Shown here: piece by piece, positions 47,728 to 64,000 of the stretch
Layout of the letters: every line of letters starts with the position of its first letter
Position numbering within the stretch: position 1 is the first letter of the stretch
Origin: an uncultured Pseudobdellovibrionaceae bacterium
GTDB taxonomy: Bacteria; Bdellovibrionota; Bdellovibrionia; Bdellovibrionales; JAGQZY01
Reading direction: 5' to 3'
Assembly (NCBI GenBank): GCA_964588335.1
Contig: CAZPOV010000003.1
Location: 148,125-212,124 of the forward strand
DNA: 64,000 nt
Notes under the pieces: generated by a model
Told to the model about the DNA's origin: nothing
The model's database searches: none
Seen by the model: only the letters and a program-made list of their open reading frames with translations
Program-made: the position numbers and the translations under genes

Positions 47728-50700
47728 TTACTGTTCTAAAAAGTAAGGGCCCCAGTTTTGCTGTTGACGCTGATAAAACCTTTCAGTGTTGATTTGAAAC
47801 TGGTTCATTTCATTCTGAAATTGATAAACACTTTGAGTTAATGGCTTAAACTCAAAAAGATCATCTTGCAGACTGACTTTGAGCTGAGAAGGGTTTTCTG
47901 GATAATAATCAAGAAACAAAGCCTCGGCATTCTCGTAAAGCTGATGAGCTGCATCCAATTGTAAATTCAAATCCTTTTTCGCTTGCACAAACTGCTGATC
48001 TAAAATTTCTTTATCAAATTTAAAAAGAAACAGTCCACGCCGAGTACGGGCCTCAAAAAATTCTTGAGCTCGAAAAAAGTAGGTTTTCCAAAAATCGCCA
48101 TCGCGATCATAGGACGGGGACACAGCGGCTCGAACCAAGTTGCGAGAGGTCGCATGAAAATTAAGGGAAACATAATAATCATTAATAAAATTACGTCCAA
48201 GATAAGGGGACGTCACCATCTCCAACGGCAAATCTAAAAATCCTTTCAGTCGACTGAATGGGATTGGCTTTTCGGTTTCATTGATCACCGCAAAGGCTTT
48301 GCTCTGTTGATGGCCTATTCCGGTATCGAACAGCAATTGAATACCCATGTTCTGTTTATGGAGAAAGTCCGTCTCCTTAATCGCCTCAAGATAGGTCTGC
48401 TCAGCTTGATCAATCTGCACCAGATTAAAACTCTGATGCATAGCTCGGGCTAAATCTTCAAGTGCCACTTTCTCTTCGATCAAACAGTCTTCAGAAAGGG
48501 GACGGTTAAGTTCTTGGCATTGTGGCTTGTCGTAGTTGGCAATTTTGTAGCCATTGAAAAAATACCGTTGAACCAAATGATCCAAGCGACCTTTTTCATA
48601 ACTTTCAAGATTTTCGACGTTCGACGAGTAATGGATCACCTCTTCTTTATCCCAAGCTGTGTAGAGTTCTCGTTTGGGAGAAAAGCTGAATTGATCAGAG
48701 GCTTGGGCCACGGCCTCAAGCGCAATCGCCGCCGCTGTCATATTGGGACGGTAGTGGACTACCGAGTCCGGAGCCTCGCGGTACGGAAAATCGGGGCTAT
48801 TGAGAGCATCAATAGGCATCTGTATGGTGAGACTACGACCGACGACGGCCGGAATCTCAAGATCAATAGCTTCATTCTGGTTGTACCTTAAACCGGTTGT
48901 CAGATAACGACGCACTCGGTTCATGTAGCTTTGTTTGGTAAACTTATAAAAAACCTGATCACCACTTTCAGACTTCACAATCCGAGAATCGTAATGCGAA
49001 CTGCGACCATTGACTTCAAAAAGAATATCATTGGCTTCATCGACGGTGAGTTCCGATTGATAAACCGCTTTTAAAAGAGGATAGACGGCTTTCATAAAGT
49101 ATTGCTTTTCACTTAAAACCACGGCTTTGGCTCGGCGTCGAGACTCATTGATTGAAACATACATGCAGTCATCAAAGATTTTTCCGTAAAAAGCCTGTTG
49201 TCCAAGATAGGATCGCACTCGATTATCAAGACTTTGAAAATAACGGGCTGTCGACTCAAGAGGAACTCTTGAAAACTCAGAATTCTGACGTTGCAGTTTT
49301 TGATAAGCCTTCATCACCTGATCAAAATATCCCATGATCGGAAGCACTTCTTGCCGAATTCGCGAGGTCACTGTTAAAGGTGAAGTATGAGTGAAATCCG
49401 CCGGATCAATCATAATAGAATCAAACTGAGAGCTTCGAAATTCATCACTATAGAAAAAGTTTGTATAAAACCGGTCCGAGATCTTTCGGTTCTCGAAGAA
49501 ATCTTTACTAAAACCCAAAAGATACTTGTCGAGATCGAAATACCGGATCAGCTCAGGTTGGTATTGATCCTTTTTAATTCCCTCACACCAACGAGCCCAA
49601 CGTCGCGACAGACTGTCTGGCGAATGATAAAGGTCACGCTGCATCTCCTGCACTGTCGAAATTAATATTTCTCTTTCGATCACTAAGTCTTTGAATAAAG
49701 TGAGAATAAAATCATCAGGATCAAAACCGTAAGATTTATAAACATTACCGGCAAAAAAGTAGTAAAAACTATCGACAATTTCGTGACGAAATAGACTGAC
49801 TTTGTTTTTTAAGGCACCAGAACCAATTCCATCTTCCGATTTTAAAAAATCGAACCATAAGCCACGGTAGGCACCAGCAAAGAACAGCTCGACAATAAGA
49901 TCGGCATTAACATCAAAAACACCAAGAAGCTTATCTTTCCACTCCGAGCGAACCATCTCGTACATGAAGGCCATCATATTTGGGTAAATCACTGTCTTCA
50001 TGACATTACGATCGATACTGCTAAAAAACTCTGCGATTTCATTGATTTGTTGCGAAGAAAGGGCTGTCGATTGCGCTTCAAGAAGATTTTGTAAAGCTTC
50101 GACACGACCGGTGTGAAATTCGACCCAATCAGGACGAAGAGTGTTTGCATAATCTTTCGAAGCCTTAACATGTTGAGCCGACTTGGTGGCCTGACTGTTG
50201 TAAAACGCTGCAATTTTCTCATTGGTATCGACTGCCATAATAGCTAAATCCCAACGGATTAAAACTTTACTGTAGTCGATGAGTCGGTCCAATGACTCGG
50301 TTTTGTTTGGAAAACTACGGATTAATAAGTTGGCCTGAGTGATCGACATTTCTTTGAAATAGACTGAAAACAGAACATGGTACTCCCATGGAGCGATTTC
50401 AAACATCTTTTGTATGTTGATATCTTTATAAGCCGGGTACTCAGAAAGATCCTTTTTACTGGCAATCATTTCTTGCCAATAGGCTTGCGCGTAGCGATCA
50501 AAACTGTCTCGAATCTCAGGATTCTCGTTGGCGTAAATCGAAATAAAAGGCGTTAAGAAGTTTTTAAGATCACGGTCCACCAAGGATGATTCCGACGATG
50601 CCTGTTGCCAAGGCGCCAAACGTATGAAATAGCGGCGTTGAAACTCTGAAGGGTTCTGCCAGTCCATCAGCTGAAAAGCCGCGATCACGTTGTGTGAGTG

Positions 50701-51387
50701 TCGTGCTTTTTCTGGAATATCGATATTTTGGTCCACCATAGAGAAAAAAGTTTCAATATAAAGTTGCGACAGATTGTCTTTTTGCCGACGGTTACCAACC
50801 TCGTAGGCAACACCAATCAATTTCAATTTACTTTCTAGATTGTCTTCGTTTTCAATAAAATAAATGACTATATCAACCAAGGAACTGGCCTGTGGAAGAC
50901 TTTCGCGCAGGTATGTACAGGTGTTGATACTGTCATCAGTACAAGGCGTGATGAAGCGCTCACGAAACAACGCCAATGATTTTTCAAACTCTGAACGAAA
51001 AGTGTCGTCGTTTGAGGTTTTGAATTTGACAAATAGGTCACGGTACAAGTTGAGGTAACCAGCATAAGGTCGACTTCCATATTGCGACTTGTCTTTTGAC
51101 CCCGGTCCAAACAACGCCAATTGGAGGCGCTCTAAAGCCAACACCCAACTCTCGATGGATTCAGATTCAATCAAAGCCTGAATTTGTAGATGATCGGGGC
51201 CATATTGCACAGACACTTCGCCGGCAGGGGATTGAGGTTCAACTCGGGTATTGGCCAAATCCTCATCCACGACTTTCTGGTGACGCGGCAGCTCCTTATC
51301 GGTGCAAGCGACGCCCCCAAAAACAAGGGCCAGTGCTAAAGTGCTTTGATAAAATGCTTTTACCCAATCGGTCTTAATCATTAACAA
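47728..51387 (-). CDS. 1219-aa orphan lipoprotein, paralog of the upstream 1234-aa gene
   Basis: Lipobox FGGVAC. I recognise no motif in it. A shared block with 51374..55078 is IYPNMMAFMYEMVRSEW...LIVELFFAGAYRGLWFDF versus AYPSMYPMLVAMTKNEL...LISLFFSGSFSPWFSY. The start overlaps the upstream gene by 14 nt. Confidence 0.7.
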   Translation of the reverse strand: MLMIKTDWVKAFYQSTLALALVFGGVACTDKELPRHQKVVDEDLANTRVEPQSPAGEVSVQYGPDHLQIQALIESESIESWVLALERLQLALFGPGSKDKSQYGSRPYAGYLNLYRDLFVKFKTSNDDTFRSEFEKSLALFRERFITPCTDDSINTCTYLRESLPQASSLVDIVIYFIENEDNLESKLKLIGVAYEVGNRRQKDNLSQLYIETFFSMVDQNIDIPEKARHSHNVIAAFQLMDWQNPSEFQRRYFIRLAPWQQASSESSLVDRDLKNFLTPFISIYANENPEIRDSFDRYAQAYWQEMIASKKDLSEYPAYKDINIQKMFEIAPWEYHVLFSVYFKEMSITQANLLIRSFPNKTESLDRLIDYSKVLIRWDLAIMAVDTNEKIAAFYNSQATKSAQHVKASKDYANTLRPDWVEFHTGRVEALQNLLEAQSTALSSQQINEIAEFFSSIDRNVMKTVIYPNMMAFMYEMVRSEWKDKLLGVFDVNADLIVELFFAGAYRGLWFDFLKSEDGIGSGALKNKVSLFRHEIVDSFYYFFAGNVYKSYGFDPDDFILTLFKDLVIEREILISTVQEMQRDLYHSPDSLSRRWARWCEGIKKDQYQPELIRYFDLDKYLLGFSKDFFENRKISDRFYTNFFYSDEFRSSQFDSIMIDPADFTHTSPLTVTSRIRQEVLPIMGYFDQVMKAYQKLQRQNSEFSRVPLESTARYFQSLDNRVRSYLGQQAFYGKIFDDCMYVSINESRRRAKAVVLSEKQYFMKAVYPLLKAVYQSELTVDEANDILFEVNGRSSHYDSRIVKSESGDQVFYKFTKQSYMNRVRRYLTTGLRYNQNEAIDLEIPAVVGRSLTIQMPIDALNSPDFPYREAPDSVVHYRPNMTAAAIALEAVAQASDQFSFSPKRELYTAWDKEEVIHYSSNVENLESYEKGRLDHLVQRYFFNGYKIANYDKPQCQELNRPLSEDCLIEEKVALEDLARAMHQSFNLVQIDQAEQTYLEAIKETDFLHKQNMGIQLLFDTGIGHQQSKAFAVINETEKPIPFSRLKGFLDLPLEMVTSPYLGRNFINDYYVSLNFHATSRNLVRAAVSPSYDRDGDFWKTYFFRAQEFFEARTRRGLFLFKFDKEILDQQFVQAKKDLNLQLDAAHQLYENAEALFLDYYPENPSQLKVSLQDDLFEFKPLTQSVYQFQNEMNQFQINTERFYQRQQQNWGPYFLEQ

Positions 51388-54300
51388 CTTCTTTTATTTC
51401 ATTAAGGTGCGAATTGATGTCAGAACGGTAATAGAATTTAAAATTCCTATTCATGTCACCGACAAATGTTTCAAATTTACCAAACTGAAACTCACTAACA
51501 ACCGGATCAATGGCATTGTCACTGGCATCACTGGCTCCAATAGGGAAACAACGATCATTTTCATAACAGTAAGTTCCTGCTTCAATGGTTGGGGCCATGA
51601 TCTTAGCCTCAATCAGGAAGCGTTTCACTGATTTAAAATAGTCGCTAATCCACAACTTGTGATCATTATCAAACAGTCCATAAATCTCCTCTTTGTTGTA
51701 AGGAAAGATAAAATAAGCCTTTTCCAAGTCATCTTCAGTGGATGTGAAGCGCGACAGACGATCTTGAAACCAAACACCCTCTTCACTGCGCACGCTACTG
51801 TCGGAAAAGACCTTTTTAAAGATCAAATCAAAGTAGGAGAACAACTGGTGATTGTTCTGTCTTTTAATAATATTCTCGTACTCCGTTCGGGTGTATTTTT
51901 TCACCTTACCAAGAGTCGTGAAAACAAATTTGTCGACAGGATCGTAATGCATGTAATCGATCATATCTTTATAATGATTGATCACTTCCGCAGGATGAAT
52001 GGATCGACAGTCCTGAGCCTGCTCTGGATTGTCACAATTAACATCATCAGCGACAGGAAGATCATTCAGTTTAAAGATTCCCGTAATTGTACTCCCTTTA
52101 CGTTCTATAAGACGCATATCCGGTGCACCAGATGACCATCTGAAAACTTTGGCAAACTCAAGTAAACCCTGCTTGATAAAATCACTTTTTGCGGTTTCTT
52201 TGTCTTTGCCCGTCCAATCAAATCGGACTCGCCATTTGTCGGACTTTTGAAACAGGCCATCTTCGATGTTGTCAAAACGACGGGGATATGAAAATTGGTA
52301 CTGACCAGCAAAAGGCTCTTCGCTCAAATAGCTAACTAAACGGGCATAATAATCCGATTTGTACATAACCAATTCCAAAGCCGTCATCTGTGAATAACCA
52401 TGATTGTCTCTAAAATCATCAGGCAGATGGGTGTTCTGATTGGCGTAGGTGAAGACCTCTTTACGAATATCCTCAATGGACGCCAATTGTTCTTGGCTCA
52501 GATTCTGTCTCTCTTCATCGGTCATCTGACCCACAGAGGCATACATTTTCTCAAAAAGATCTTCGAGAAACTGGGCTTCCTTGAAAAATAAAGCATAACG
52601 AACATCTCGTTCACGTTTAAGGAACGGAAGTTCACAGGATTGCCCGTTGACCTTTAATTCATCGTGCATTTCAAAAAACAAATCCGTGTACTCATGCTTT
52701 AAATCATTAAACTTTTTAAACTGCTCATCAATGATCTGCTCTAAAGACTCCTCACCTTCAACAGCGATATCATTGTCCTGGGCGTAACGTTTGTACATTT
52801 CAACCAACATCTTGACTTTGGTGTTATTCAAAACGTAGCCACTTTGAAAACGTTCAAAAGTCGTATTAACGTCATGAGAATAGACATCTTCGAAGTACTT
52901 ATAAGCACTATCACTGACATGATCCGAGTTCTGCGGATAAACCACACTTTGTCCAAGCTCAATAAAATCGATATCGTTTTTTCCCTGTCGACGAGGCAGT
53001 AGGTTCTGATTGAATCCTGTTACAATATCAAAATTACCGCTCTCTACGTTTTCGACGAGACTGCGACGTTCACGCTCTTGTAAACGTATTTCCTCGGCAC
53101 ACATCGATTTTAGATTTTCTATTTTCGACTGATAACTACCACGCACACGTTTTAGGTTGGTGAGCTTTATTTCGAGATTCTTTTCATTTTCCTCAATAAA
53201 TTTTGCCACAATGATGCGAAAAAATTCTTTTGCATCAAACTGCATTTTCGAGTTGTTTTTATAACTGCTCAAAGTCTGGGTCACAATGGTGTAATAAAAC
53301 GCCACCATCAGCTCAGTTTCGTCCAAAGCGACGGTGTTTCCACCGTATGAAAACCAAGGGCTAAAGGAACCAGAAAAGAAAAGACTGATCAGTGTATTAT
53401 GGTCGATGGTACCGAACCAGAAAGACTTTTTCAGCTCATTCTTTGTCATAGCCACCAACATCGGATACATCGACGGGTAGGCGGCCAAATATTTGATATT
53501 TAACTTAATAGCACGCACCAAAGTTCGAAACTCATCACGCGCTCGACGATTCTGAAAATCCGAATCAGGAACCACACGGTTGATAAAATCCAATAAATAG
53601 GTGGCTCTCAGATTGATTTTCTCCCAAGACAGGGTCAAAAAGTCAGCCTCTTGCTTGGTTTGCTGCAAAAGTGTGATCAAACCACCACTGTCATTGTTCT
53701 CATAAAACTTGTTCATTCTTGCATTGGTAAAAACGATGTTATAAACCAACTGCATTTTGATCAAATGAGTGGCGGCTTCGATCAATCGTTCACTGTTACG
53801 ATTTGAGTTTTCCCAAAACGAATCCGAATCAGAAATATAATAATGCTCATAAAATATTTGATGAGTCAGATAAAAGTACTCGTCATACTGAAAGTTCACA
53901 TCACCCATCATCGATCCTAGGATATTCTTACTCTCAGATCCAAACTTCATGACCTGGGGATTGGCCTCTAATTCGGCTTCAACCAGTTCATCGCGCTCCG
54001 GACTAAAAACCGTTGCTTCAGAAGCATCACTCCATGCGCCGTTGATATTGCTTTTCTGGAACTCAATTCCGTACTCGAAGTCTGATCCAATTCGATATTT
54101 AAGGTCCTCGATGGCCTCTTGCATTGAATTGGAAAGACTGGTTTTTTGGGCGTCCGAATAAAGAAATTTCTCGGAGGCTATTTTCAATAACTCGGGCATC
54201 GACTGCGATATTTCATCACTGGAACTCCGACTCATAGTCCATGGGTTCAGTTGTTCAACAATCGAGATATAGCTGTCATTACTGGCAAAATCCAAAGAAT

Positions 54301-55078
54301 CCAGTTTCAAAATCGTCGCAAACAATTGGTTGTCAAGCTGTCGACGAGTGGTTGAAAGCTCACCTTTTTGACGCAACTCAAAGCTCTCTAAAATCCGAGA
54401 CATGAGCATCAATCTTAACGTCGTATCCAAACGACGATTCTTCAGATCAAAAGTGGCTCGTAAAATACGTGTTTTTTCAGCCTCAACCGACTCATTATCG
54501 TAAATTATTTGCATGACTTTTGAAATATTGGGGGAGTCTGCATTCCTAAAAAAGTTTATGAGCTTGCAAGACCCAACAAGATTTTCATCACAGTCCCACA
54601 GAATAATATTCTTATAGGCCGGTAAGATATTGGTTGTAGTTAAAATCTCTTTATTACTGCCGTAAACCATAATCAGGGCTTGGTCAAAAAGACTGACCAG
54701 CTGATAACTCAGTTTTCGTCGATTTTCATCCATTACATTGCGAAAATCAGGGTTCAGCATGTTGTCCATATCGAAAAGAACTTCTTTCAGCGGTATGATG
54801 ACCTTCGTCATCAGCATATTGGGGTCCCGCTGTTCTTTGTGTTTCTCAAGCTCAGAGTTTACGAAGGGGCGAGTTTGTCGAATAAGCAGTTCCAATTGGC
54901 TTACCATGTCTTGATTCTGTAGACGTAGAGATTCGCTCTCTTCAACCAGATAATCGCCATCAGTCATCATTCGCTTCCGGGAGGAAGACTCAGGACTACA
55001 AGCGACTAGCAAAAGAGCGGTGACTAGCAGAGTGGTTCGCAATAGATCTTTAAGTGTCATCGTGTTCCTCATTGTCAT
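51374..55078 (-). CDS. 1234-aa orphan lipoprotein, paralog of 47728..51387
   Basis: Lipobox LLLVAC. The start is 3 nt after the metalloprotease stop. There is no HExxH motif. Confidence 0.7.
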   Translation of the reverse strand: MTMRNTMTLKDLLRTTLLVTALLLVACSPESSSRKRMMTDGDYLVEESESLRLQNQDMVSQLELLIRQTRPFVNSELEKHKEQRDPNMLMTKVIIPLKEVLFDMDNMLNPDFRNVMDENRRKLSYQLVSLFDQALIMVYGSNKEILTTTNILPAYKNIILWDCDENLVGSCKLINFFRNADSPNISKVMQIIYDNESVEAEKTRILRATFDLKNRRLDTTLRLMLMSRILESFELRQKGELSTTRRQLDNQLFATILKLDSLDFASNDSYISIVEQLNPWTMSRSSSDEISQSMPELLKIASEKFLYSDAQKTSLSNSMQEAIEDLKYRIGSDFEYGIEFQKSNINGAWSDASEATVFSPERDELVEAELEANPQVMKFGSESKNILGSMMGDVNFQYDEYFYLTHQIFYEHYYISDSDSFWENSNRNSERLIEAATHLIKMQLVYNIVFTNARMNKFYENNDSGGLITLLQQTKQEADFLTLSWEKINLRATYLLDFINRVVPDSDFQNRRARDEFRTLVRAIKLNIKYLAAYPSMYPMLVAMTKNELKKSFWFGTIDHNTLISLFFSGSFSPWFSYGGNTVALDETELMVAFYYTIVTQTLSSYKNNSKMQFDAKEFFRIIVAKFIEENEKNLEIKLTNLKRVRGSYQSKIENLKSMCAEEIRLQERERRSLVENVESGNFDIVTGFNQNLLPRRQGKNDIDFIELGQSVVYPQNSDHVSDSAYKYFEDVYSHDVNTTFERFQSGYVLNNTKVKMLVEMYKRYAQDNDIAVEGEESLEQIIDEQFKKFNDLKHEYTDLFFEMHDELKVNGQSCELPFLKRERDVRYALFFKEAQFLEDLFEKMYASVGQMTDEERQNLSQEQLASIEDIRKEVFTYANQNTHLPDDFRDNHGYSQMTALELVMYKSDYYARLVSYLSEEPFAGQYQFSYPRRFDNIEDGLFQKSDKWRVRFDWTGKDKETAKSDFIKQGLLEFAKVFRWSSGAPDMRLIERKGSTITGIFKLNDLPVADDVNCDNPEQAQDCRSIHPAEVINHYKDMIDYMHYDPVDKFVFTTLGKVKKYTRTEYENIIKRQNNHQLFSYFDLIFKKVFSDSSVRSEEGVWFQDRLSRFTSTEDDLEKAYFIFPYNKEEIYGLFDNDHKLWISDYFKSVKRFLIEAKIMAPTIEAGTYCYENDRCFPIGASDASDNAIDPVVSEFQFGKFETFVGDMNRNFKFYYRSDINSHLNEIKEVVND

Positions 55079-55081
55079 CTC

Positions 55082-58000
55082 CTATTCCAAATACTGGAAC
55101 ACTTGGGGAAGGATCCATCCGTTTAGAGAAAGAGCTGTAGCACCAATAAGGCCCAGTCCTTTCCGCGATTCAATACACTCTCTTTGGTCTGGTTTTCTAA
55201 CGCCATCCAAACTGTTGTACTTTTCAAATTGTTCGATCACTGAGTTTTCAAATTGCTGCTGCGTTAAACTACTGACAGCGATATTTGATGATGTCGTAAA
55301 TCCGTCGAATTTCTCTTCTTTGATCTCACCCTCCTCATCTGTGGTTCGATTGTTTTTAGTAAAGAAACTGGCTAGACCATTTTCACCACGCATACAATCA
55401 TCCAAGACCTTGTTTGACAGGGTTCGAATAATCGATTTAACGCTAAACCCTTGCAAAGGGTCACCATTTCGAGTTGGCTCGTAAGTCACCTCGACGGCCC
55501 AAATGTAAGCGGTTTTTGGTCCAATAAATCTGAGTTTTGTTAATGGCATAACGATCTGACCGTCTGTTCCACGCACCACGGTGTTTCCGTGCGGCAAGAT
55601 GTAAGCTTCCGGGAGCGTAATCAATCCGTCTTTGGCGCGACTGAATATCTTAGGTGTGAATCCAAAGATGATTGAATCAGAGATCTCTTGATCGACAACA
55701 GCTTCAAATAGAACTGGAGACACACTCACACGAAAGTTGGTCTGACCTTTAACATCATCCAAAAAGATATCATCAAAGCCTCGATGCAAATTGTCTCGAG
55801 TCAGCCAATTGTCTCGTCGCAAAAAGTATGACATGTACAAGTTCGCCAAACTCAACGAGGCTTTATCGCCCAGGTCAACACCTCCAAATGACATGTTGTT
55901 TTCAACCGAAGATTTAACAATATCGGTGTACTCTTCAGGATAGAAGGCATAATAGCTGTAATTACCTTTTTTACCTGAGTATTGAGGCTTGCTCACATTC
56001 CAGTATCCGTATCGCATTGTCGAAGACGGTGAGGTTAGAACGCTGAGTGCGGCCAACTTTAGGGGCAGAATCCCCAAAGTTATATAACGTCCAAAAACCT
56101 TATTGTATTGGGCTCGGGCGTTGGCACCTCGCAATCCTGTTGGAATCACTGAGCCTTCGAAGTCATACTCGGTATGATCATACCCAGGCAGCGAAAGTAA
56201 AGTTTTGGTGTGGTCTAAAGACTTTCGGTTGGCGCGACAAAGCTTATGAAGCTCTGTAAAAGCCACTCCATCAGCATAAAGACTGTTCTCTAAGTCCAAT
56301 TTCTCCTCAGCTGACAGGTCGAGATAGCTTTTGTCTCCAAAACTTCTCATAGCGCCTCGGTATTTATTTAACAGTGTTCTGTTGATCGAGTTGTAATCAC
56401 CGCCGCGGCGTTCGGTTTCGAAAAGTTTACCTGTCGCGGTAGCTGTCGGCTGTAGAACCAGCTTCGCAAAATCTTCTTGGTAGTCATCGCTAGCAAGTAG
56501 GGGATCGACACAGGCTTTAGAAAACTGGACCAAAACGTCACGGTCAGCAATCATCTCGTAGAACACCTTGGCATAGCTCGGTCTGTGAAGATCATCGATC
56601 ATGTCGAAACGCATCTTATCGTAAAATGTTCGATTGTAGTTCATTAAAGCATAAGTGTCGTGCCAAAGCCTCCAGCTCATGTAACTATCGCTACCTCCAG
56701 TGGCTTGCGTGAACGAGTTCATTCTCTTGATAAATGAATCTTTAAATTGATCAAAATTGTCGTCAATAATAGTTGGCGCATCATGACCGCTATCCCAACG
56801 TCGACAATAGGGGTCGGTCGCTAACCAGGCTTCCAAATCTGAACATTGTGGCATATAGCGCACCTGTCGCATCCGCCCTTGGTGTATAATGGTTTTTGGA
56901 ATGCTTCCGTCAATTGGTAGGTCTACCATAACGAAGTCATCTTCTCCAGGCTCAAAAGTCGCGATTTTTTGGTTATAAAGATATTGTAAAACCAGTTCAT
57001 CGTGGCTGCGCAAAGTCACATCCTCTGGTTTCAGTGAAACCTCTGTTTGCCCACTCTGGTAATCCATGACACTGGTATAGTGTTTACCCGAACGAACCCG
57101 TTCACTCATCTCTTGATAAAGAGTTTCAGGAATTGTTCCTCGTTCTGGCAAAATATTTCCTTTAAATTGGTGCCCCATTCCTAGGACATGACCAACCTCA
57201 TGCAACATGACATTTTTGATAACTGAAATAGCCGCTTCTTCACGCTCGGGATAGCCCATTTCTGAAGTTTGCGCCAGCCACTCACCGTAGTGATCGGCGA
57301 TGGTATTATCCCAATCAACATCCATTCGAAGCATGGTTTTGTAGTCAGTAATCAACTGCCTCTTGACCTCTTCAGGATTCTCGTTACTGATAACAGAGTT
57401 TCTTTTTTCCTTCTCAAGGTCGCTATAGACGGCTGAAACGCCAAGCTGGGATTTTTGCATCAAAGACTGTTTGTAGTCCTGTTCTTCTAAACGAAAGTTC
57501 CTAAAATCGGGGAAGACATCCGAGTCCAAATTATTAGGTACGGTTGCAACCACTTCAGAGATCTTTTTATTCACCAATTCTTCTATTTTTGACTGCAGAA
57601 CTTGACTGGCATTTTGACCACTTGCGGTCAATTGCTCTATCACTGACGCCTGTTGGTAATGGGATTGCAGTTGCCCAGCCTCATCTTCAATACCTAGAAC
57701 TCGAACCAGTTCGGTTTGTTCCATCGCACTCGCTTGGCTCGCATTGGCTCCAGCGGCTTCAATTTTCGCCTGCACATGAGTCAATAGCATCGCACGGAAA
57801 GACTCTTTTAATTTACTGTCGTCGGCCAGCTCTTCATGCTGCCCAATCGGACGCATACCCGTAATGTCAGGCATCTCTAACTGATGATTAATGTCCGAGA
57901 AATAGGGTTGATCTTTGATCGATTGAATTCTCTCTAAGACTTCATGAGTGTTTCGGGCCAATGCATCCACTGGCGATTCCGATTCACGATTGACAAGATA

Positions 58001-59209
58001 ATCGATCATTCCACCCCAAACAATAGCGCTTCCCCAAAGGATTTCACCGGTTTTGATGTTGGTATTCACCAAACCGATACCAAGAGGGGCACCCATAGAG
58101 AGCTCTGGGTCGGCGACAAAATTAATACTGGGACAACGCATATCAAAGACGTAATCATAGGTTTTGTCTGATACAACAAAACCAACCTGTCCGTCTTTAA
58201 GAGCTCCAATCTTGCGCAAGGTCTTGTTGACCTCGGCGATCACTTCTTCTCCTATCTTTCTATATCTTCCATCCTCAGGGAATCCATTCAGACACATCTT
58301 AATGGGTTTTGAGAAGTCCCAGTGAGCCGCGTAATTTTTTTCGTTCATACCATCTTCACGAGTCCCAAGAATATGCAGAATGTTCATATTCTGAGAGACA
58401 GTGTCTGGATCGTAGGCTGTGACTTTAAAACCTTTGGTTCCTTCGAACTCTAGGAAATTAAAACGAATCTCATGTTGAACGTCAGACCCAAACACACTAG
58501 ACGTTAGAGTGCCTGTGTAAGCAAAAAAGTTCTTACCGTTTTCATCTTGCGACAATTCAATATCGTGAACGTCGTGAACTCGTCCTCCGTTTAGAGGATG
58601 ATAGGTTCCGAAAAGAATAAGAGGGTCTTTTTCTCTATTTGTATAGTTAATATTTTTGATGTCGAGGTCCATATACGGCTGCAGCTGCCAGTTCTTTCGA
58701 TCAGAAACTTTGGCAAATCGATTCAACTCGCGACCTCTTGAATCCACGTCTTTTTCATAAAAATAGTGCTTTGTGATTGGAATCACAAAAAGAGTCTGCC
58801 AATCCGCAACATTCGGCTTGTCGACGTTGACCTCAAGAGCTTCAAGTCCTGAACCATCCTCAGTGATTCTAAAAACCATGTTACAGTGACGAGTATTATA
58901 AGGGGCTCCGGTCAGACCACCGACATTTTTAAATTTTCCGCTCTGCCGAACCGGCGCCCAACCACACAGCCATGTTTTATCTTCATAAGCCCATTCATTG
59001 GTTTCCTGGTTGATCTTAATACCAAAGAAAGATTTCTTTGCCGACAGAACACCATTTTGAACTTTTCCAAAAACCGAGGATTGCTCAAGTCCAGGAACCG
59101 GGTTTTCCTCTTCCGGGGTCACATAAGTGCATTGGCTCAAGAATAAGTAGGCGAGCGCCAGTACACTTATTGCGATGGTGGATTTTAGCTTTAGGGGAGT
59201 CCGCATCAT
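55082..59209 (-). CDS. 1375-aa secreted/lipoprotein metzincin-type zinc metalloprotease (DUF5117/DUF4953-like)
   Basis: HEVGHVLGMGH (plus-strand coordinates 57170-57202) is an HExxHxxGxxH motif, followed ~37 aa later by the SVMDY Met-turn. The upstream GAPLGIGLVNTNIKTGEILWGS block is typical of this family. The signal peptide ends FLSQC. Confidence 0.8.
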   Translation of the reverse strand: MMRTPLKLKSTIAISVLALAYLFLSQCTYVTPEEENPVPGLEQSSVFGKVQNGVLSAKKSFFGIKINQETNEWAYEDKTWLCGWAPVRQSGKFKNVGGLTGAPYNTRHCNMVFRITEDGSGLEALEVNVDKPNVADWQTLFVIPITKHYFYEKDVDSRGRELNRFAKVSDRKNWQLQPYMDLDIKNINYTNREKDPLILFGTYHPLNGGRVHDVHDIELSQDENGKNFFAYTGTLTSSVFGSDVQHEIRFNFLEFEGTKGFKVTAYDPDTVSQNMNILHILGTREDGMNEKNYAAHWDFSKPIKMCLNGFPEDGRYRKIGEEVIAEVNKTLRKIGALKDGQVGFVVSDKTYDYVFDMRCPSINFVADPELSMGAPLGIGLVNTNIKTGEILWGSAIVWGGMIDYLVNRESESPVDALARNTHEVLERIQSIKDQPYFSDINHQLEMPDITGMRPIGQHEELADDSKLKESFRAMLLTHVQAKIEAAGANASQASAMEQTELVRVLGIEDEAGQLQSHYQQASVIEQLTASGQNASQVLQSKIEELVNKKISEVVATVPNNLDSDVFPDFRNFRLEEQDYKQSLMQKSQLGVSAVYSDLEKEKRNSVISNENPEEVKRQLITDYKTMLRMDVDWDNTIADHYGEWLAQTSEMGYPEREEAAISVIKNVMLHEVGHVLGMGHQFKGNILPERGTIPETLYQEMSERVRSGKHYTSVMDYQSGQTEVSLKPEDVTLRSHDELVLQYLYNQKIATFEPGEDDFVMVDLPIDGSIPKTIIHQGRMRQVRYMPQCSDLEAWLATDPYCRRWDSGHDAPTIIDDNFDQFKDSFIKRMNSFTQATGGSDSYMSWRLWHDTYALMNYNRTFYDKMRFDMIDDLHRPSYAKVFYEMIADRDVLVQFSKACVDPLLASDDYQEDFAKLVLQPTATATGKLFETERRGGDYNSINRTLLNKYRGAMRSFGDKSYLDLSAEEKLDLENSLYADGVAFTELHKLCRANRKSLDHTKTLLSLPGYDHTEYDFEGSVIPTGLRGANARAQYNKVFGRYITLGILPLKLAALSVLTSPSSTMRYGYWNVSKPQYSGKKGNYSYYAFYPEEYTDIVKSSVENNMSFGGVDLGDKASLSLANLYMSYFLRRDNWLTRDNLHRGFDDIFLDDVKGQTNFRVSVSPVLFEAVVDQEISDSIIFGFTPKIFSRAKDGLITLPEAYILPHGNTVVRGTDGQIVMPLTKLRFIGPKTAYIWAVEVTYEPTRNGDPLQGFSVKSIIRTLSNKVLDDCMRGENGLASFFTKNNRTTDEEGEIKEEKFDGFTTSSNIAVSSLTQQQFENSVIEQFEKYNSLDGVRKPDQRECIESRKGLGLIGATALSLNGWILPQVFQYLE

Positions 59210-59366
59210 GGGATTTCATCCTTTCTTTTTTTATTAACACTTTTTAAGGTACACAAAATGTACCAAGTCTAAGTCACCGAAATGACAGTAAATATTATGC
59301 TTACAGCGCTCCAATAAATGGCTCCACCGTAAAATTGTCAGACACTTGTCCGCAGGTTGTCAGAAT

Positions 59367-60281
59367 TCAAAACGAATAGGTCACCCCACCCGAAATCAAG
59401 CGACGATATCGGTCAAACATCACCGGATCGATACTGTCGTTTTCTGGATATGATTGATTGAGATAGCTTAAGTAAAGTTGAAAACCCTGGACGTTGGCAA
59501 AAAGGGTGACATTGTTACCCATGACCGTTGTCCATTGACCATCAAGGTAGCGTTCAGCACTGGCATTAAAGCTGGTGCGCAACCCCAAAAAATTCCATGG
59601 AACGTAAGTGATTCCAAAAGAATTGGCGAGCAACCAATCGCGATTGATGAGATCAGTTGTAATTGAGTATTTTTGACTGTTCCACTGAAAGTGAGCCATC
59701 ATTCGATTGAATAGAATCATCTTATTCCAGCTGTATGAACTCATGAAGTTTGTCAAAGAAAGACTTCCGATGTGTTTATCAAAACGACTGACCTCACTGG
59801 TCGGTAAAGAGATATTGAAGGTATTGGAGCTGCGATTCACAAACGAAAGAGGCTTCATCTTGGAGTACACAACTCCAAAGTTCAGATTGGTAAATTGATG
59901 AAAAGGCTCGCTCGAAGTTTCGCGGACAATTCGACCGCCGTACGATTCATGAAGAACCCCAGCCGATGTGTAAGCACTCCAATGCTTATCAAAACCATAG
60001 GTGCCGGCGAGAGACAAAATATGACGGGTGGTTTTGATCTCGACTTGCTGTAACTGATCGTAAGTAAATCCATAGTTTGCGATCAGCCCAAAACGATTGG
60101 CCGGTGGCATGAAGTCCGATTGGTCCACACCCAGTTTGTTTTTTTCACTTTTCTTTGATTTTTTCTTATTATCTGTGATTTGAGTTTTGCTTTGGTTGGA
60201 CTTTTCTTCAGCAAACGCTGACGGCAATGACACCAGGCCACTCAGGAAAACTGCAATGAATGATTGAAATATAGGACGCAA
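59367..60281 (-). CDS. outer-membrane beta-barrel protein (small, ~14-16 strands predicted by eye)
   Basis: Signal peptide ...LPSAFA, alternating hydrophobic pattern, aromatic-rich sequence, and a C-terminal GGVTYSF ending in Phe. TTG start with a GGAGAGG RBS. Confidence 0.6.
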   Translation of the reverse strand: MRPIFQSFIAVFLSGLVSLPSAFAEEKSNQSKTQITDNKKKSKKSEKNKLGVDQSDFMPPANRFGLIANYGFTYDQLQQVEIKTTRHILSLAGTYGFDKHWSAYTSAGVLHESYGGRIVRETSSEPFHQFTNLNFGVVYSKMKPLSFVNRSSNTFNISLPTSEVSRFDKHIGSLSLTNFMSSYSWNKMILFNRMMAHFQWNSQKYSITTDLINRDWLLANSFGITYVPWNFLGLRTSFNASAERYLDGQWTTVMGNNVTLFANVQGFQLYLSYLNQSYPENDSIDPVMFDRYRRLISGGVTYSF

Positions 60282-60484
60282 AACCTCTCCACATTTTATT
60301 CGACTTGTACCCAGTTAAGAGATGCACAAAGCACGCCACGGCTAAGTTATTGATATTTCTGAAATTACAGAATTAAAAGTTGTACACCACTGACCATTTT
60401 CGCGCCCCCAAACCGCCAGCTCACTTTTTTTGACCGTCTAAAATCAGCTTCTTGACTCCTTCGAACAAGAGGCTAGAAACAACT

Positions 60485-60727
60485 ATGGTATTAAAAATGA
60501 TTCAACAATCGATCTATTTTACAAGATACGGGCTGGGGCTTTTGGGAATTGTTATTGGTATGGGAATGGTATTTCAAAGCGTTCTACCCATTCATCCAAG
60601 CTTTTTATTTCGGCTCGAAGGCGACACCGTTCCATTAATTTTTACCCATAGAGCTCTACTGGCTTTGGTTGGAGCCTGTATTTACATCACCGCCACCCAA
60701 TGCCTTCCTCTTGGGGAAAGGAAATAA
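60485..60727 (+). CDS. possible small 2-TM membrane protein
   Basis: Two hydrophobic segments (LGLLGIVIGMGMVF, ALLALVGACIYI). The RBS is weak. Confidence 0.3.
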   Translation: MVLKMIQQSIYFTRYGLGLLGIVIGMGMVFQSVLPIHPSFLFRLEGDTVPLIFTHRALLALVGACIYITATQCLPLGERK

Positions 60728-60730
60728 ACT

Positions 60731-61024
60731 TTAGAATGCCACCTCAACACCACTGTCATAAGTTTCCATTGAGGTGAATTCGATGCCTTGTTCCTGAGAG
60801 CTTTGATCGTCAGCTGACGCCACAAAGAAGGGAACGGTGCCAAACGGGCAGGGTGAATTCGGTCCGGTGACAGCTGTATAACCATCAGCACCATCCATAC
60901 AATACCATCCTGATACCGTGATCGTTGATTGACTTTCACTGGACTCACTTTGTAGGTCTTTTGGAGCATAGGCAAAGGACACATTGGCCAGCAACATTGA
61001 TAGAATAATGATCGTTTGTTTCAT
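60731..61024 (-). CDS. small secreted hypothetical protein
   Basis: Signal peptide MKQTIIILSMLLANVSFAYA and a GAGGAG RBS. It ends in ...VEVAF. Confidence 0.5.
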   Translation of the reverse strand: MKQTIIILSMLLANVSFAYAPKDLQSESSESQSTITVSGWYCMDGADGYTAVTGPNSPCPFGTVPFFVASADDQSSQEQGIEFTSMETYDSGVEVAF

Positions 61025-61352
61025 AGTAATCTCCTCACTAAAGTCAGTTCACAAATCATGCCAGGCTGCTGATTCACTCAGATCCAAATCAAAGTCTTTC
61101 GACGTGCCAGTGTTTCAGCGCAAATTGTTCGAGACGCTTTTTTTCGCAAATAAAAAATAGTTAGTGATTTCAGTATCCTGTAATATTTGCCTGAAATTTT
61201 TGTCAAAAAAATAGACGAAACCACCCCCTAAAACCTATTCACCTACGAAAGTTTTACCTAGTAAATTCAGCAACATAGACCATGGCCTGGTTTGTGTATC
61301 ATAATGGGGCACAAACAAACGGACATATTTAAAAACAAAAAGGCCTCAATCA

Positions 61353-62216
61353 GTGATCCAACTTTTCAAACATTTTAATCTGTTCCGAACCCTAGCGATC
61401 GGTGTTGGTTCACTTATGGCATGCAGCCTTTCGTTGGCCTCTTATGAAAACACCACACAATTAGGAATTAAGAAAAAAGAGAGTCAAATCAATCTAGTCA
61501 ACTCTTTTAGCTATCGCATGTCCTCGGATGCTTTTGATAGCAATGACCGCAAGGTCTTTAACCATGGTCTTGGTTACAATGGGACTCTGTTTTTTCTCGA
61601 TAAATATTATGCTAACGCTGGCTTAGCCGCCACTTATCACAGTGTTGATTCAACGATTATTCAACAAGATAACGGAACCTATCATTTAAGTGATGCTGTT
61701 ATCGGCTTAGGGACAAAAGGATTCCAACTCTACAAAGGCAACTCAGATAGCCTGTCTTTGTTTAATAATATCCGCAATGTTGTTCCTCTCAGTGATCGCA
61801 GTCGCAATGAAGGTTACAAGTCATTAACTTCTGTCTCCGGAGATTTGGCTTATCAGCGCGGCCCACTAAGCTTTGTTCTGACCGGGCAGTACAACTATGT
61901 CTTCAATTCGTTTGAAACCAATACCGATGGCTTATACAACTTACGATCGTCGTCCCTGGCTGGAGTCACAGCTCGTTACAATTACAAAAAACTTCGTCTG
62001 CAGTACTCTTACCGTTTTGGAGTGCTTGAATATATGGACGGCAATCGATTGGGCTCTTCAGGAAACACCCTTTCAATCATGGCATTATTTAATAAATCAT
62101 TATGGGCCGGCATTTCGACATCAAACTTGAGTTACGCTGAAGAACAGTATGTCGATGTTTGGTTTTATGACCCCTTTCGAAGAATTTATAACCTCACACT
62201 AGGAGTAACATTCTAA
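61353..62216 (+). CDS. outer-membrane beta-barrel protein, paralog of 59367..60281
   Basis: Signal peptide ...SLSLASY. The C-terminus DPFRRIYNLTLGVTF aligns with DRYRRLISGGVTYSF of the other barrel. Its stop overlaps the next ATG (TAATG). Confidence 0.6.
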   Translation: MIQLFKHFNLFRTLAIGVGSLMACSLSLASYENTTQLGIKKKESQINLVNSFSYRMSSDAFDSNDRKVFNHGLGYNGTLFFLDKYYANAGLAATYHSVDSTIIQQDNGTYHLSDAVIGLGTKGFQLYKGNSDSLSLFNNIRNVVPLSDRSRNEGYKSLTSVSGDLAYQRGPLSFVLTGQYNYVFNSFETNTDGLYNLRSSSLAGVTARYNYKKLRLQYSYRFGVLEYMDGNRLGSSGNTLSIMALFNKSLWAGISTSNLSYAEEQYVDVWFYDPFRRIYNLTLGVTF

Positions 62217-64000
62217 TGAGACTCATCCTAATAACAGCACTTTTCCTAAGCTTCGGCCTGACAGCATGTGACGTCAACAAGCGAGACCCCGAAACTCCAG
62301 CGCCCACTGTCAAAAGAGTGAAAAGCGATTTCTTTTTTGAATACAGTGCTGATCGTAGCACTTTCAAATCAAGACGGTTTTTATTTGGGATGGCGACTGA
62401 AGACAAAACCGGAGTCTACAGAGACATCACCATGGATCACTTTAACCACTACAGTTATGGAAGCTCCAATATTGAGTTTGACTTTAATGAAGAGGGGACC
62501 AAACTGATCGGACGTTTAGTCAACCCAACCTATCCTAATAATAAAAACAAGTGGCAGGTTCTATTAACCTTCGATGTGAGCCGTAGTTATTACCAAGAAA
62601 ATAGAGTCGATGGCAGTGGACGAACCAGTAACGACCAGATCGAAAGAACCGATCGCAGTCATCCTCACGCTCGAACCTATATCGATATTGAACTGAGTTC
62701 CTTAAGATTTGAAAACAATGTTCTGATTGGTCCCTATGCTGGCCTTGGCTTACGACAAATTCAAAAAATTGAAGATGTCGAATGGAGTATTGACGAAAAG
62801 TTCCTCGCCTTTACAGCCGTTTCAACCAACGTAGCCTTAGGATCCAATGCTCAAACTATTGACCGAGTGAATTTTTTGCGTATGGAGAAAAGACCAGATG
62901 ATTTCGAGGTCACGCGATACAATAAATTTAACGATGAACACGTGCAGATTCTTTACACCCTGGGCTCACGCCCTAACCACTATGGTGAAGATTTAAAGGC
63001 CGTGCACTGGGACATTAACGAGAAAACCAAAAAGACCCACACTATATATCTCCACAATTTCCCCTCTGAGTACCTGCAGATCGCTAAAGACTCTGTGGAA
63101 TCATGGAATGATACCTTCCAGGATGTAGTTGGTTATCGCCCTTTTAAAACGGAAGTTTGGGAAAGTAAGTATCACTTTGACCTTCGTCGCCATGTGATTC
63201 ACTGGGTGGATGACATCCGTCTGTCTGCCGCTGGTCCTCTTGGTGTTGCCAACATTGCCGCTGACGTTGAAACCGGACAGGTTCTGTGGACAGGCTCCAT
63301 TGTTTGGGGTGGATTGCTGGACCGCTACGCCGGTCGTTATGTGCCGTCTTCAAGCGTTGCAGGTTTTGCGTCCTATGCCAGCAATTCTCATAGTATGCAA
63401 AATCTTATTGCAGCCAATCGCAGCGCCTGGTCGACACCCTTGGCTCACCCCAGTTTAGAAACCTATTTTTCGGACTTTACTGATTACCTTACTGATCGAG
63501 TAACCGATCTGAATCAACGTGTGATTGAACAAAGAATTGAAGAGTACAATGCCGGTGTTGATGCCGCCGTTGAACGCAACGAGATCACGGAACAAGAGGC
63601 TACGATCAATAAACAACAGTTTGCTCTTGAGGCACGCAGCCCTGAGGACCTGTTCTCAGCCCAACAACAATTAAATACTCTGCGCGAGTCTCTGCAGATG
63701 GACCCGGTCAATGATGTTGACCTTGACGATGCCTATGCCGGCCTTCAACAAAGCCCGTTCACATTCAACCAAATGCTTGAGGAACTGGGAATGGAGACGT
63801 CGTCAACAGAAAACAACGCCCCTTTATATATGGGGATGATTGATCCTCAGTCTGAATTTTTCGAGCAATTGCCAGAAAATTTAAAAAACCGAGCCATGCA
63901 AGTACCCAATGGCTTTTACAAATACACCCATGATGGTGATTACTCGGCTTTTCAAGCCATTCAAAGTATCAATTCAGGCATAAGCGAGCTTTTAAGCTCT
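62216..64000 (+). CDS. metzincin-family lipoprotein paralog, N-terminal 595 codons (runs off the right edge; absent from ORF track)
   Basis: Hand translation is open from the ATG at 62216 to 64000. It has the lipobox FGLTAC. AAGPLGVANIAADVETGQVLWTGSIVWGGLLDRY aligns with GAPLGIGLVNTNIKTGEILWGSAIVWGGMIDYL of 55082..59209. Confidence 0.75.
   Translation, partial: MRLILITALFLSFGLTACDVNKRDPETPAPTVKRVKSDFFFEYSADRSTFKSRRFLFGMATEDKTGVYRDITMDHFNHYSYGSSNIEFDFNEEGTKLIGRLVNPTYPNNKNKWQVLLTFDVSRSYYQENRVDGSGRTSNDQIERTDRSHPHARTYIDIELSSLRFENNVLIGPYAGLGLRQIQKIEDVEWSIDEKFLAFTAVSTNVALGSNAQTIDRVNFLRMEKRPDDFEVTRYNKFNDEHVQILYTLGSRPNHYGEDLKAVHWDINEKTKKTHTIYLHNFPSEYLQIAKDSVESWNDTFQDVVGYRPFKTEVWESKYHFDLRRHVIHWVDDIRLSAAGPLGVANIAADVETGQVLWTGSIVWGGLLDRYAGRYVPSSSVAGFASYASNSHSMQNLIAANRSAWSTPLAHPSLETYFSDFTDYLTDRVTDLNQRVIEQRIEEYNAGVDAAVERNEITEQEATINKQQFALEARSPEDLFSAQQQLNTLRESLQMDPVNDVDLDDAYAGLQQSPFTFNQMLEELGMETSSTENNAPLYMGMIDPQSEFFEQLPENLKNRAMQVPNGFYKYTHDGDYSAFQAIQSINSGISELLSS

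Follow-up and report, generated by a model that had tools for sequence, protein, structure and literature searches.

In a stretch of 64,000 nucleotides (nt) from an uncultured Pseudobdellovibrionaceae bacterium (assembly GCA_964588335.1, contig CAZPOV010000003.1, forward strand, positions 148,125–212,124; the whole stretch is called the window), two sets of envelope genes were found to face away from each other across a divergent intergenic core. The region is read, with a probability of about 0.6, as the junction of two anciently diverged four-gene envelope cassettes, the products of which would form an outer-membrane protease complex of three lipoproteins docked to a barrel. The unit consists of four genes, encoding a beta-barrel (B), a metzincin lipoprotein (P) and two paralogous lipoproteins of about 1,200 amino acids (aa; the giants, G1 and G2), and not of two, barrel and protease, as a first-pass annotation of this DNA had it. 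The cassette (about 13 kb) is conserved in uncultured Bdellovibrionales, where it often occurs in several copies; its four genes are tightly packed and co-diverge. Judged by their sequences, the two arms appear to be old paralogues that were brought side by side, rather than duplicated in place.

Layout of the two arms

The left arm lies on the minus strand and is complete in the window. It comprises giantL2 (47728–51387; 1219-aa lipoprotein of G2 type, lipobox ...GGVAC/TD), giantL1 (51374–55078; 1234-aa lipoprotein of G1 type, lipobox ...LLVAC/SPE), protL (55082–59209; 1375-aa metzincin lipoprotein, lipobox ...LSQC/TY) and barrelL (59367–60281; 304-aa outer-membrane beta-barrel with the signal peptide ...SAFA/EE, a lysine-rich linker and the C-terminus ...GVTYSF); the two giant genes overlap by 14 nt. 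The right arm, on the plus strand, begins with barrelR (61353–62216; 287-aa outer-membrane beta-barrel with a GTG start, the signal ...SLA/SYE and the C-terminus ...LGVTF), which is 100 % identical to database entry P0033. It is followed by protR (62216–64000; lipobox ...LTAC/DV), the first 595 codons of a metzincin lipoprotein of ~1272 aa that is open at the window end. The TAA of barrelR and the ATG of protR share base 62216 (TAATG, a 1 nt overlap). The first-pass annotation had described a minus-strand pair facing a plus-strand pair, the TAATG coupling of the latter and two small genes between the barrels; all of these are present, the small open reading frames (ORFs) at 60452–60727 (plus strand) and 60731–61024 (minus strand).

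The right arm past position 64000 was read in related metagenome-assembled genomes (MAGs), the protL orthologues of which are 97 % and 84 % identical to protL; the head-to-head layout is the same in both. In the 97 % relative (L067), the right arm consists of a barrel (310 aa), a protease (1272 aa; 93 % identical to the protR fragment of the window) and two lipoproteins of 1377 aa and 1180 aa, both of which match the giant hidden Markov models (HMMs) and carry a lipobox. Giants beyond the right-hand protease, which the first-pass annotation had proposed to look for, are therefore present in the relatives. Its suggestion that the right-hand ORF might turn out to lack the zinc motif and to belong to another family is not borne out, as the full-length L067 orthologue carries HEIGHTLGLGH (residue 615) and SSIMGY. 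The mirror is thus one of four plus four genes, and the overall order is G2-G1-P-B, core, B-P-G1-G2, about 27 kb for both cassettes with the right-hand giants taken from the relatives.

Composition and distribution of the cassette

Scanning with a protease alignment, with one genome per species, gave 61 true loci; two more weak matches were spurious. All 61 loci are found in MAGs, which are assigned to Bdellovibrionales, Pseudobdellovibrionaceae, Bdellovibrionota or Oligoflexia. All ORFs of the loci were extracted and subjected to iterative HMM searches. Searches started from barrelL and from barrelR converged on the same 58–60 ORFs, and those started from giantL1, giantL2 and giantR1 on one set of ~115 ORFs; no ORF belongs to more than one of the protease, barrel and giant sets. 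Completeness was counted on the 31 proteases for which the available sequence extends 9 kb or more downstream and 1.3 kb or more upstream. Of these, 29 are accompanied by one or more barrels and two or more giants, and the gene order is P-G-B-G in 20 of the 31 loci. The cassette genes are separated by median gaps of −11 to +2 nt. Several MAGs hold two or three cassettes. The genes around the cassettes vary by locus and are housekeeping in kind, which argues that the cassette is self-contained.

A mobile-element origin of the cassettes was discarded, as no tRNAs are present, housekeeping genes adjoin the cassettes and the G+C content is only slightly lower. In the window it amounts to 0.41–0.43 across 48000–62000, compared with 0.44–0.49 in most other parts.

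Similarity between the arms

In BLASTP comparison, protL and protR align over 454 colinear residues (E=2e-40, 26 % identity), a WGG block included. With the full-length right-arm orthologue, the N-terminal part of protL aligns with E=1e-39 and the C-terminal part with E=5e-64. The pairwise match of barrelL and barrelR is borderline and covers 74 residues at the C-terminus (E=0.001, 28 % identity). An HMM built from left-type barrels only, and hence a non-circular test, scores barrelR at E=7.9e-12, and alignment of the two barrel clade profiles with hhalign gives 97.3 % probability over 223 columns, which is nearly the whole barrel. Because these profile-level tests support the weak pairwise match, the homology of the barrels is regarded as firm. 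The shared blocks quoted for barrels and proteases in the first-pass annotation recur in the BLASTP alignments. The similarity between the arms, well above chance by BLASTP and by profile comparison, is not confined to short low-complexity stretches in the protease alignment or in the barrel profiles.

The same data bear on the view that the barrels are unrelated neighbours of the proteases and that their mutual likeness is merely compositional, as it would be for any beta-barrel. The pairwise E value of just 0.001 over 74 residues speaks for it; the non-circular profile score, the hhalign result, the presence of a barrel in 29 of the 31 complete loci and a barrel tree that mirrors the protease tree speak against it, and its probability is practically negligible.

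Age and origin of the two arms

Neighbour-joining trees were calculated from BLOSUM-based distances for the protease, barrel and giant proteins. In all three, the left and right arms fall into widely separated clades. The tree distance between protL and protR is 0.78, compared with 0.49 between protL and the protease of locus L007; the corresponding values for the barrels are 0.92 (barrelL to barrelR) and 0.50 (barrelL to L007). Identity between the arms is ~25 % for the protease and ~18–21 % for the barrel, and their sole nucleotide inverted repeat is a 52 nt segment of 73 % identity at the WGG block.

The remaining members of the protL clade are P-G-B-G cassettes with 41–47 % identity. One of them is a third cassette (L007, L010), also P-G-B-G, which is located on another contig of the related MAGs that carry the mirrored pair; its protease (44 % identical to protL) is the closest paralogue of protL in these genomes, nearer than protR. 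In the giant tree, giantL1 falls with the G1 and giantL2 with the G2 proteins of the same left clade (clade A). A distant clade, which adjoins cassettes with an upstream, divergent barrel, unites L027 with the right-arm proteases of L003 (the 84 % relative) and L005; the L005 protease shares 93 % identity with the protR fragment. The barrel tree repeats this pattern, with barrelR 77 % identical to the L027 barrel. In L027 the right-type cassette is solitary and has no mirrored partner.

The left arm is accordingly a cassette of clade A, the barrel gene of which has shifted from between G1 and G2 to a position upstream of P, and the right arm is a member of a distant clade with an upstream barrel. 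The symmetry of the two arms is secondary.

This result is at odds with the "mirror-image duplication" of the first-pass annotation, according to which a two-gene barrel-protease module was inverted and duplicated on the spot around a 1 kb core, both copies being kept. The mirror-symmetric layout, the rare barrel-upstream order of both arms and the retention of the head-to-head pair in the 97 % and 84 % relatives are in its favour. However, the two arms are neither each other's closest paralogues nor joined by a substantial nucleotide inverted repeat, and the low identities contradict a duplication in place, as do the trees. protL is 44–47 % identical to P-G-B-G cassettes, the third cassette of the same related MAGs among them; for both protease and barrel, the right arm of the 97 % relative forms a tight cluster with the unmirrored L027; and the unit is four genes. 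A duplication in place is therefore considered very improbable.

A second head-to-head arrangement, independent of that in the window, was observed in a Bdellovibrio sp. MAG (L017, positions 1–21000). There a deep-branching protease of 1370 aa, with two barrels and a 1151-aa lipoprotein at its sides, faces an ordinary P-G-B-G cassette; the giant HMMs barely recognise this lipoprotein.

The distance matrices of protease and barrel are correlated (Mantel r=0.77; 0 of 2000 permutations gave a value as high), in agreement with the matching trees, and this co-divergence supports a functional link. The claim that barrel and protease were duplicated and retained as a unit, and so function together, holds as far as linkage is concerned, which is seen in co-location, tight packing and the Mantel correlation; it fails in the size of the unit.

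The metzincin lipoprotein

The zinc-binding motif HExxHxxGxxH is invariant in an alignment of 21 proteases, the right-arm orthologue included, and was found in 51 of 51 full-length members. In protL it reads HEVGHVLGMGH (residues 670–680) and is followed by a Met-turn, SVMDY (713–717), in which M715 and Y717 are invariant in the alignment, the Met standing 35 residues after H680; the turn itself is read from the sequence alone. SxMxY occurs within 70 residues of the zinc motif in 43 of the 51 members and is also seen in astacins and serralysins. The protR fragment in the window stops before the zinc-motif region. Taken together, the protease retains all the sequence hallmarks of an active metzincin.

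Among curated families, protL matches PF16313 (DUF4953) with 26.4 bits (cut-off 24.2) at profile positions 5–190 of 316 only; matches of its relatives are weak, faint or absent, and the protR fragment, which ends before the region concerned, gives none. The likeness to PF16313 and the metzincin clan consists of HExxHxxGxxH, the Met ~35 residues after the third His and then a Tyr. The differences are that only about the first 60 % of the profile is matched and that protL is a lipoprotein of the ~1,300-aa type with an insertion of ~250 residues. A protease profile search of the PDB gave nothing significant.

Residues 261–1375 of protL were modelled with AlphaFold2 (AF2; predicted local distance difference test (pLDDT) 81, predicted template-modelling score (pTM) 0.81). 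The model runs from a sheet-plus-helix subdomain through a helical insertion of ~250 residues to the active-site helix and then to large helical and beta domains; ~600 residues lie C-terminal to the catalytic domain. This order of secondary structure is compatible with the metzincin topology. The helical insertion (residues ~400–650, ~58010–57260, minus strand) is predicted with lower confidence and shows the lowest conservation within the family; from the model, it may be a cap or latency element.

The giant lipoproteins

A single-sequence search among 1.84 billion clusters gave 146 giant representatives, nearly all of 1050–1350 aa; a word-indexed homology search with an alignment of 32 giants gave 3 proteins. 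In this alignment the lipobox Cys is invariant and four further Cys are conserved; an enzymatic signature is not recognisable in either giant type. The giants, distant representatives included, match no Pfam or NCBIfam family and have no relative in the PDB by sequence; an FN3 match of one of them (P0210) was a false positive. The idea that they are degenerate proteases was rejected, as hhalign of protease against giant matched the signal peptides only. In L067, giantL1 and giantL2 are related to each other with E=1e-8 and 22 % identity and are ancient paralogues. Across the family, the G1 and G2 types fall mostly into separate clades, and the G1/G2 duplication is therefore older than the spread of the cassette.

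Lipoprotein signals and tether motifs

All three lipoproteins carry a lipobox (LSQC in protL, LTAC in protR, LVAC in giantL1, GVAC in giantL2), for which lipidation is predicted. The Cys is at least 90 % conserved in the proteases and, as stated, invariant in the 32 giants; the strict lipobox pattern was found in 66 of 91 giants and 35 of 50 proteases. In both P and G, the alignments show invariant Cys residues, which suggest disulphides.

Downstream of the lipid Cys, motifs occur at a fixed distance. The giants have the consensus C-T-x-K/R-x-V-P-R-x-P-H-E-G-A, with a His, usually in H-E-G-A/P, at Cys+10 in 54 of 89 sequences and within +7 to +14 in 66 of 89 (background 11 %). The motif region of giantL2 is located at 51306–51277; the giants of L067 were also included. 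In the proteases, E-[TN]-P-x-P stands at Cys+8 in 29 of 47 sequences and within +3 to +32 in 36 of 47 (background 0.3 %). In the window it reads ENPVP in protL (59128–59092, minus strand) and ETPAP in protR (62267–62303, plus strand), both at Cys+8.

By analogy, these fixed-position motifs are candidate sorting or docking signals. In Bacteroidota, surface export of lipoproteins is directed by a position-critical C-X-K-(D/E)2-X after the +1 Cys (PMC5080379). The fixed distance from the +1 Cys is shared; the motifs described here differ in sequence and position (H-E-G at +10, E-T-P-x-P at +8), and the comparison is one of analogy, not of membership.

The outer-membrane barrel

Both window barrels have a signal peptide, and the AF2 model of barrelR (pLDDT 80.9) has 12 strands and lacks a plug helix, a coiled coil and a folded domain at the N-terminus. 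The C-terminal residue of the family is F in 38 and I in 9 of 51 members (47 of 51 F or I), in line with GVTYSF and LGVTF in the window. The features of an outer-membrane beta-barrel are thus present, namely a Sec signal peptide, an even strand number (in the model) and a C-terminal beta-signal. Pfam OMP_b-brl is matched by 2 of 34 members (2.8e-9), neither of them from the window, and two family members match the FadL/Toluene_X transport family (FadL 2.2e-5); a barrel profile search of the PDB gave nothing significant.

Between clades the barrels diverge to 16–20 % identity. Invariant residues (P145, S147, S150, N196) and a WYxDxYRR block are located in loops at the long-loop end of the 12-strand model and not in strands; the conserved stretches of barrelR are residues 145–154 (~61785–61814) and 262–277 (~62136–62183). 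Conserved loops are uncommon in outer-membrane proteins. By analogy with standard barrel topology, the long-loop end would face outward.

A Foldseek search of the PDB with the barrel model gave FapF as the best match (E=1.4e-8, template-modelling (TM) score 0.54–0.57, ~280 aligned columns), followed by a COG4313 channel (4rl8, TM 0.57); Tsx was also listed. FapF (5o65, 5o67, 5o68), of the Pseudomonas Fap amyloid operon, shares the 12 strands with the cassette barrel; it is also a small barrel whose gene shares an operon with those of the exported proteins served by it, as would be the case in the cassette. It differs in that identity is about 9–12 %, with no relationship at the sequence level; that the loci contain no Fap-like genes and the partners are three giant lipoproteins instead of unfolded amyloid monomers; and that the cassette barrel model has no plug helix or coiled coil. 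Membership of the FapF family was rejected, as there is no profile match and no Fap operon context, and the 12-strand fold alone is shared. COG4313 and Tsx channels have the same strand number and size, but show no sequence similarity and are not encoded alongside giant lipoproteins or proteases.

These matches bear on an alternative in which the cassette serves nutrient uptake in the manner of Sus or KdgM/NanC: the lipoproteins would digest protein outside the cell and the 12-stranded barrel would import the peptides as a channel. Barrels of 12 strands include substrate-specific channels, such as the second-best match COG4313 and the listed Tsx, the two matches to FadL/Toluene_X point the same way, and the conserved loop residues could line a constriction. 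Against this, FapF, which matches the barrel model best, is a pore for polypeptide secretion; a pure channel would have no need of tether motifs at fixed positions on all three lipoproteins; and one barrel of ~280 aa per cassette, diverging as fast as its partners, is more than is expected of a generic peptide pore. An uptake channel is therefore regarded as unlikely.

Comparison was also made with Slam/TbpB (type XI, Neisseria) and SusC/SusD (Bacteroidota), in which a barrel gene is likewise linked to genes of surface lipoproteins. Those systems belong to other taxa, and the cassette contains no DUF560, TonB-dependent receptor or SusD domain. Slam has 14 and SusC 22 strands, compared with 12 in the cassette barrel model. 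Membership of the Slam/type XI system was rejected on the grounds of no Pfam DUF560 match, 12 strands and no N-terminal folded domain.

Proposed function of the cassette

The cassette probably builds an outer-membrane protease complex. In the mechanism that we favour, all four products would be exported; the three lipoproteins would be delivered to the outer membrane and would assemble on the barrel or pass through it, with the post-Cys tether motifs and the conserved loop motifs of the barrel as likely contact or sorting elements. The complex would then act as an outward-facing protease machine with P as the catalytic subunit and G1 and G2 as scaffold or substrate-binding subunits, and the substrates, such as proteins of prey or of the environment, might differ between paralogous cassettes.

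A more specific form of this proposal is put forward as tentative and is itself doubtful: a machine particular to Bdellovibrionales, in which the 12-stranded barrel docks or exports the metzincin and the two giants, as members of a new family without enzymatic function, by way of C-x9-H-E-G and C-x7-E-T-P-x-P. It would be a new route of lipoprotein display at the surface, coupled to a proteolytic weapon or feeding device, and would have diversified into several paralogues per genome in uncultured predators.

Several points weigh against the reading as a barrel-docked protease complex. Complex formation, location at the cell surface and protease activity are inferred, and the co-divergence of the cassette genes is equally expected from simple co-inheritance. 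The part of the right arm beyond position 64000 is known from relatives. A Foldseek search of the PDB with the 1115-residue protease model gave nothing at E<0.1, with solved metzincins at E>1, and in this respect P differs from the metzincin clan, to the solved members of which it has no significant sequence or fold match. The fold matches of the barrel are generic, at about 9–12 % identity. The alignment of 32 giants (17 % identity) contains no invariant H, E, D or S column, and the role of G1 and G2 is assigned mainly by exclusion. Finally, protR in the window has an Asp at +2 after the lipid Cys, which in E. coli leads to retention in the inner membrane, a rule that may not be that of Bdellovibrionota.

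A further alternative places the lipoproteins on the periplasmic side, where they would serve quality control or remodelling of the cell's own envelope in the manner of BepA or LoiP and have nothing to do with prey. The cassettes do lie among the ATP synthase operon, mur genes and dehydrogenases, and the surface exposure invoked in the barrel-docked model is a deduction. On the other hand, several fast-diverging paralogous cassettes per genome are atypical of quality-control factors, the finds of the family are limited to MAGs and to part of Bdellovibrionales, and the most conserved residues of the barrel are located at the long-loop end, which is presumed to be extracellular. Such a housekeeping role is quite unlikely.

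The divergent core and other features of the window

The core between the barrel genes (60282–61352) is intergenic and 1071 nt long. The "1-kb divergent core" of the first-pass annotation is lineage-specific and shorter in the 84 % and 97 % relatives. In the 84 % relative (L003) it measures 440 bp and has no small genes. In the 97 % relative a segment of ~320 nt (~60407–60730) has no counterpart by blastn. This segment contains the ORF at 60452–60727, which encodes 91 aa with hydrophobic segments, has no homologue in any related locus and is a doubtful gene; it could be an insertion particular to the strain, or else the ORF is spurious.

The second small gene (60731–61024, minus strand) encodes a secreted protein of 97 aa with the signal peptide ...SFAYA and two Cys. 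It stands outside the cassette proper, is kept only in L001, L002 and L005, as a gene of 88–92 aa, is absent from L003 and matches no Pfam family. Its core reads ITVSGWYCMDGADGYT.VTGPNS.CPFGTVPFFVA.

Scanning of the core for sigma-70 promoters and terminators gave no excess over shuffled sequences. Upstream of barrelR, an imperfect palindrome GCGYAAA-N15-17-TTTRCGC (61118–61147, plus strand) is a candidate regulator site; the window, L067, L003 and L027 all have GCGYAAATTGT without change, amid diverging intergenic DNA. A sigma-54-like −24/−12 element, TGGCC-N7-TGTAT (61283–61299, plus strand), is located 54 nt 5′ of the barrelR start, and the block AAAGGCCT (61339–61346) stands right before the GTG start; both are conserved in four diverged barrelR upstream regions. 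The window copy of the sigma-54-like element has one mismatch, GT replacing GC at −12. The pattern TGGC-N7-TTG[CT] is found upstream of 6 of 49 cassettes (background 0.9 %), with matches from about three lineages only, and the strict sigma-54 pattern is not enriched across the window overall. The FliA-type (attack-phase) promoter pattern has no match in the window.

Elsewhere in the window, an ORF at 37246–41475 (plus strand) encodes 1409 aa, of which the first ~420 match a Na+/H+ exchanger domain and ~1000 are unannotated; a small MscS-like gene follows.

Novelty and significance

No paper was found that mentions DUF4953 or PF16313, and no relevant one that links Bdellovibrio with metzincins, lipoprotein metalloproteases or a cassette of this kind. 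The kinds of component are known (metzincin, outer-membrane barrel, lipoprotein), as are envelope systems of barrel plus lipoprotein as a kind. In the literature and curated families found, there is no description of the giants as a family, of the architecture of the protease or of the complete cassette.

A mirror duplication alone would be ordinary, and the value of the analysis lies in the definition of the cassette. It touches the open question of how lipoproteins are displayed at the surface of Gram-negative bacteria beyond Bacteroidota and a few pathogens, and it bears on the attack and feeding tools of uncultured Bdellovibrio-like predators, which are largely unknown. As a candidate barrel-dependent complex of lipoproteins, the cassette is open to testing: its catalytic subunit can be identified, and candidate motifs for sorting are available.

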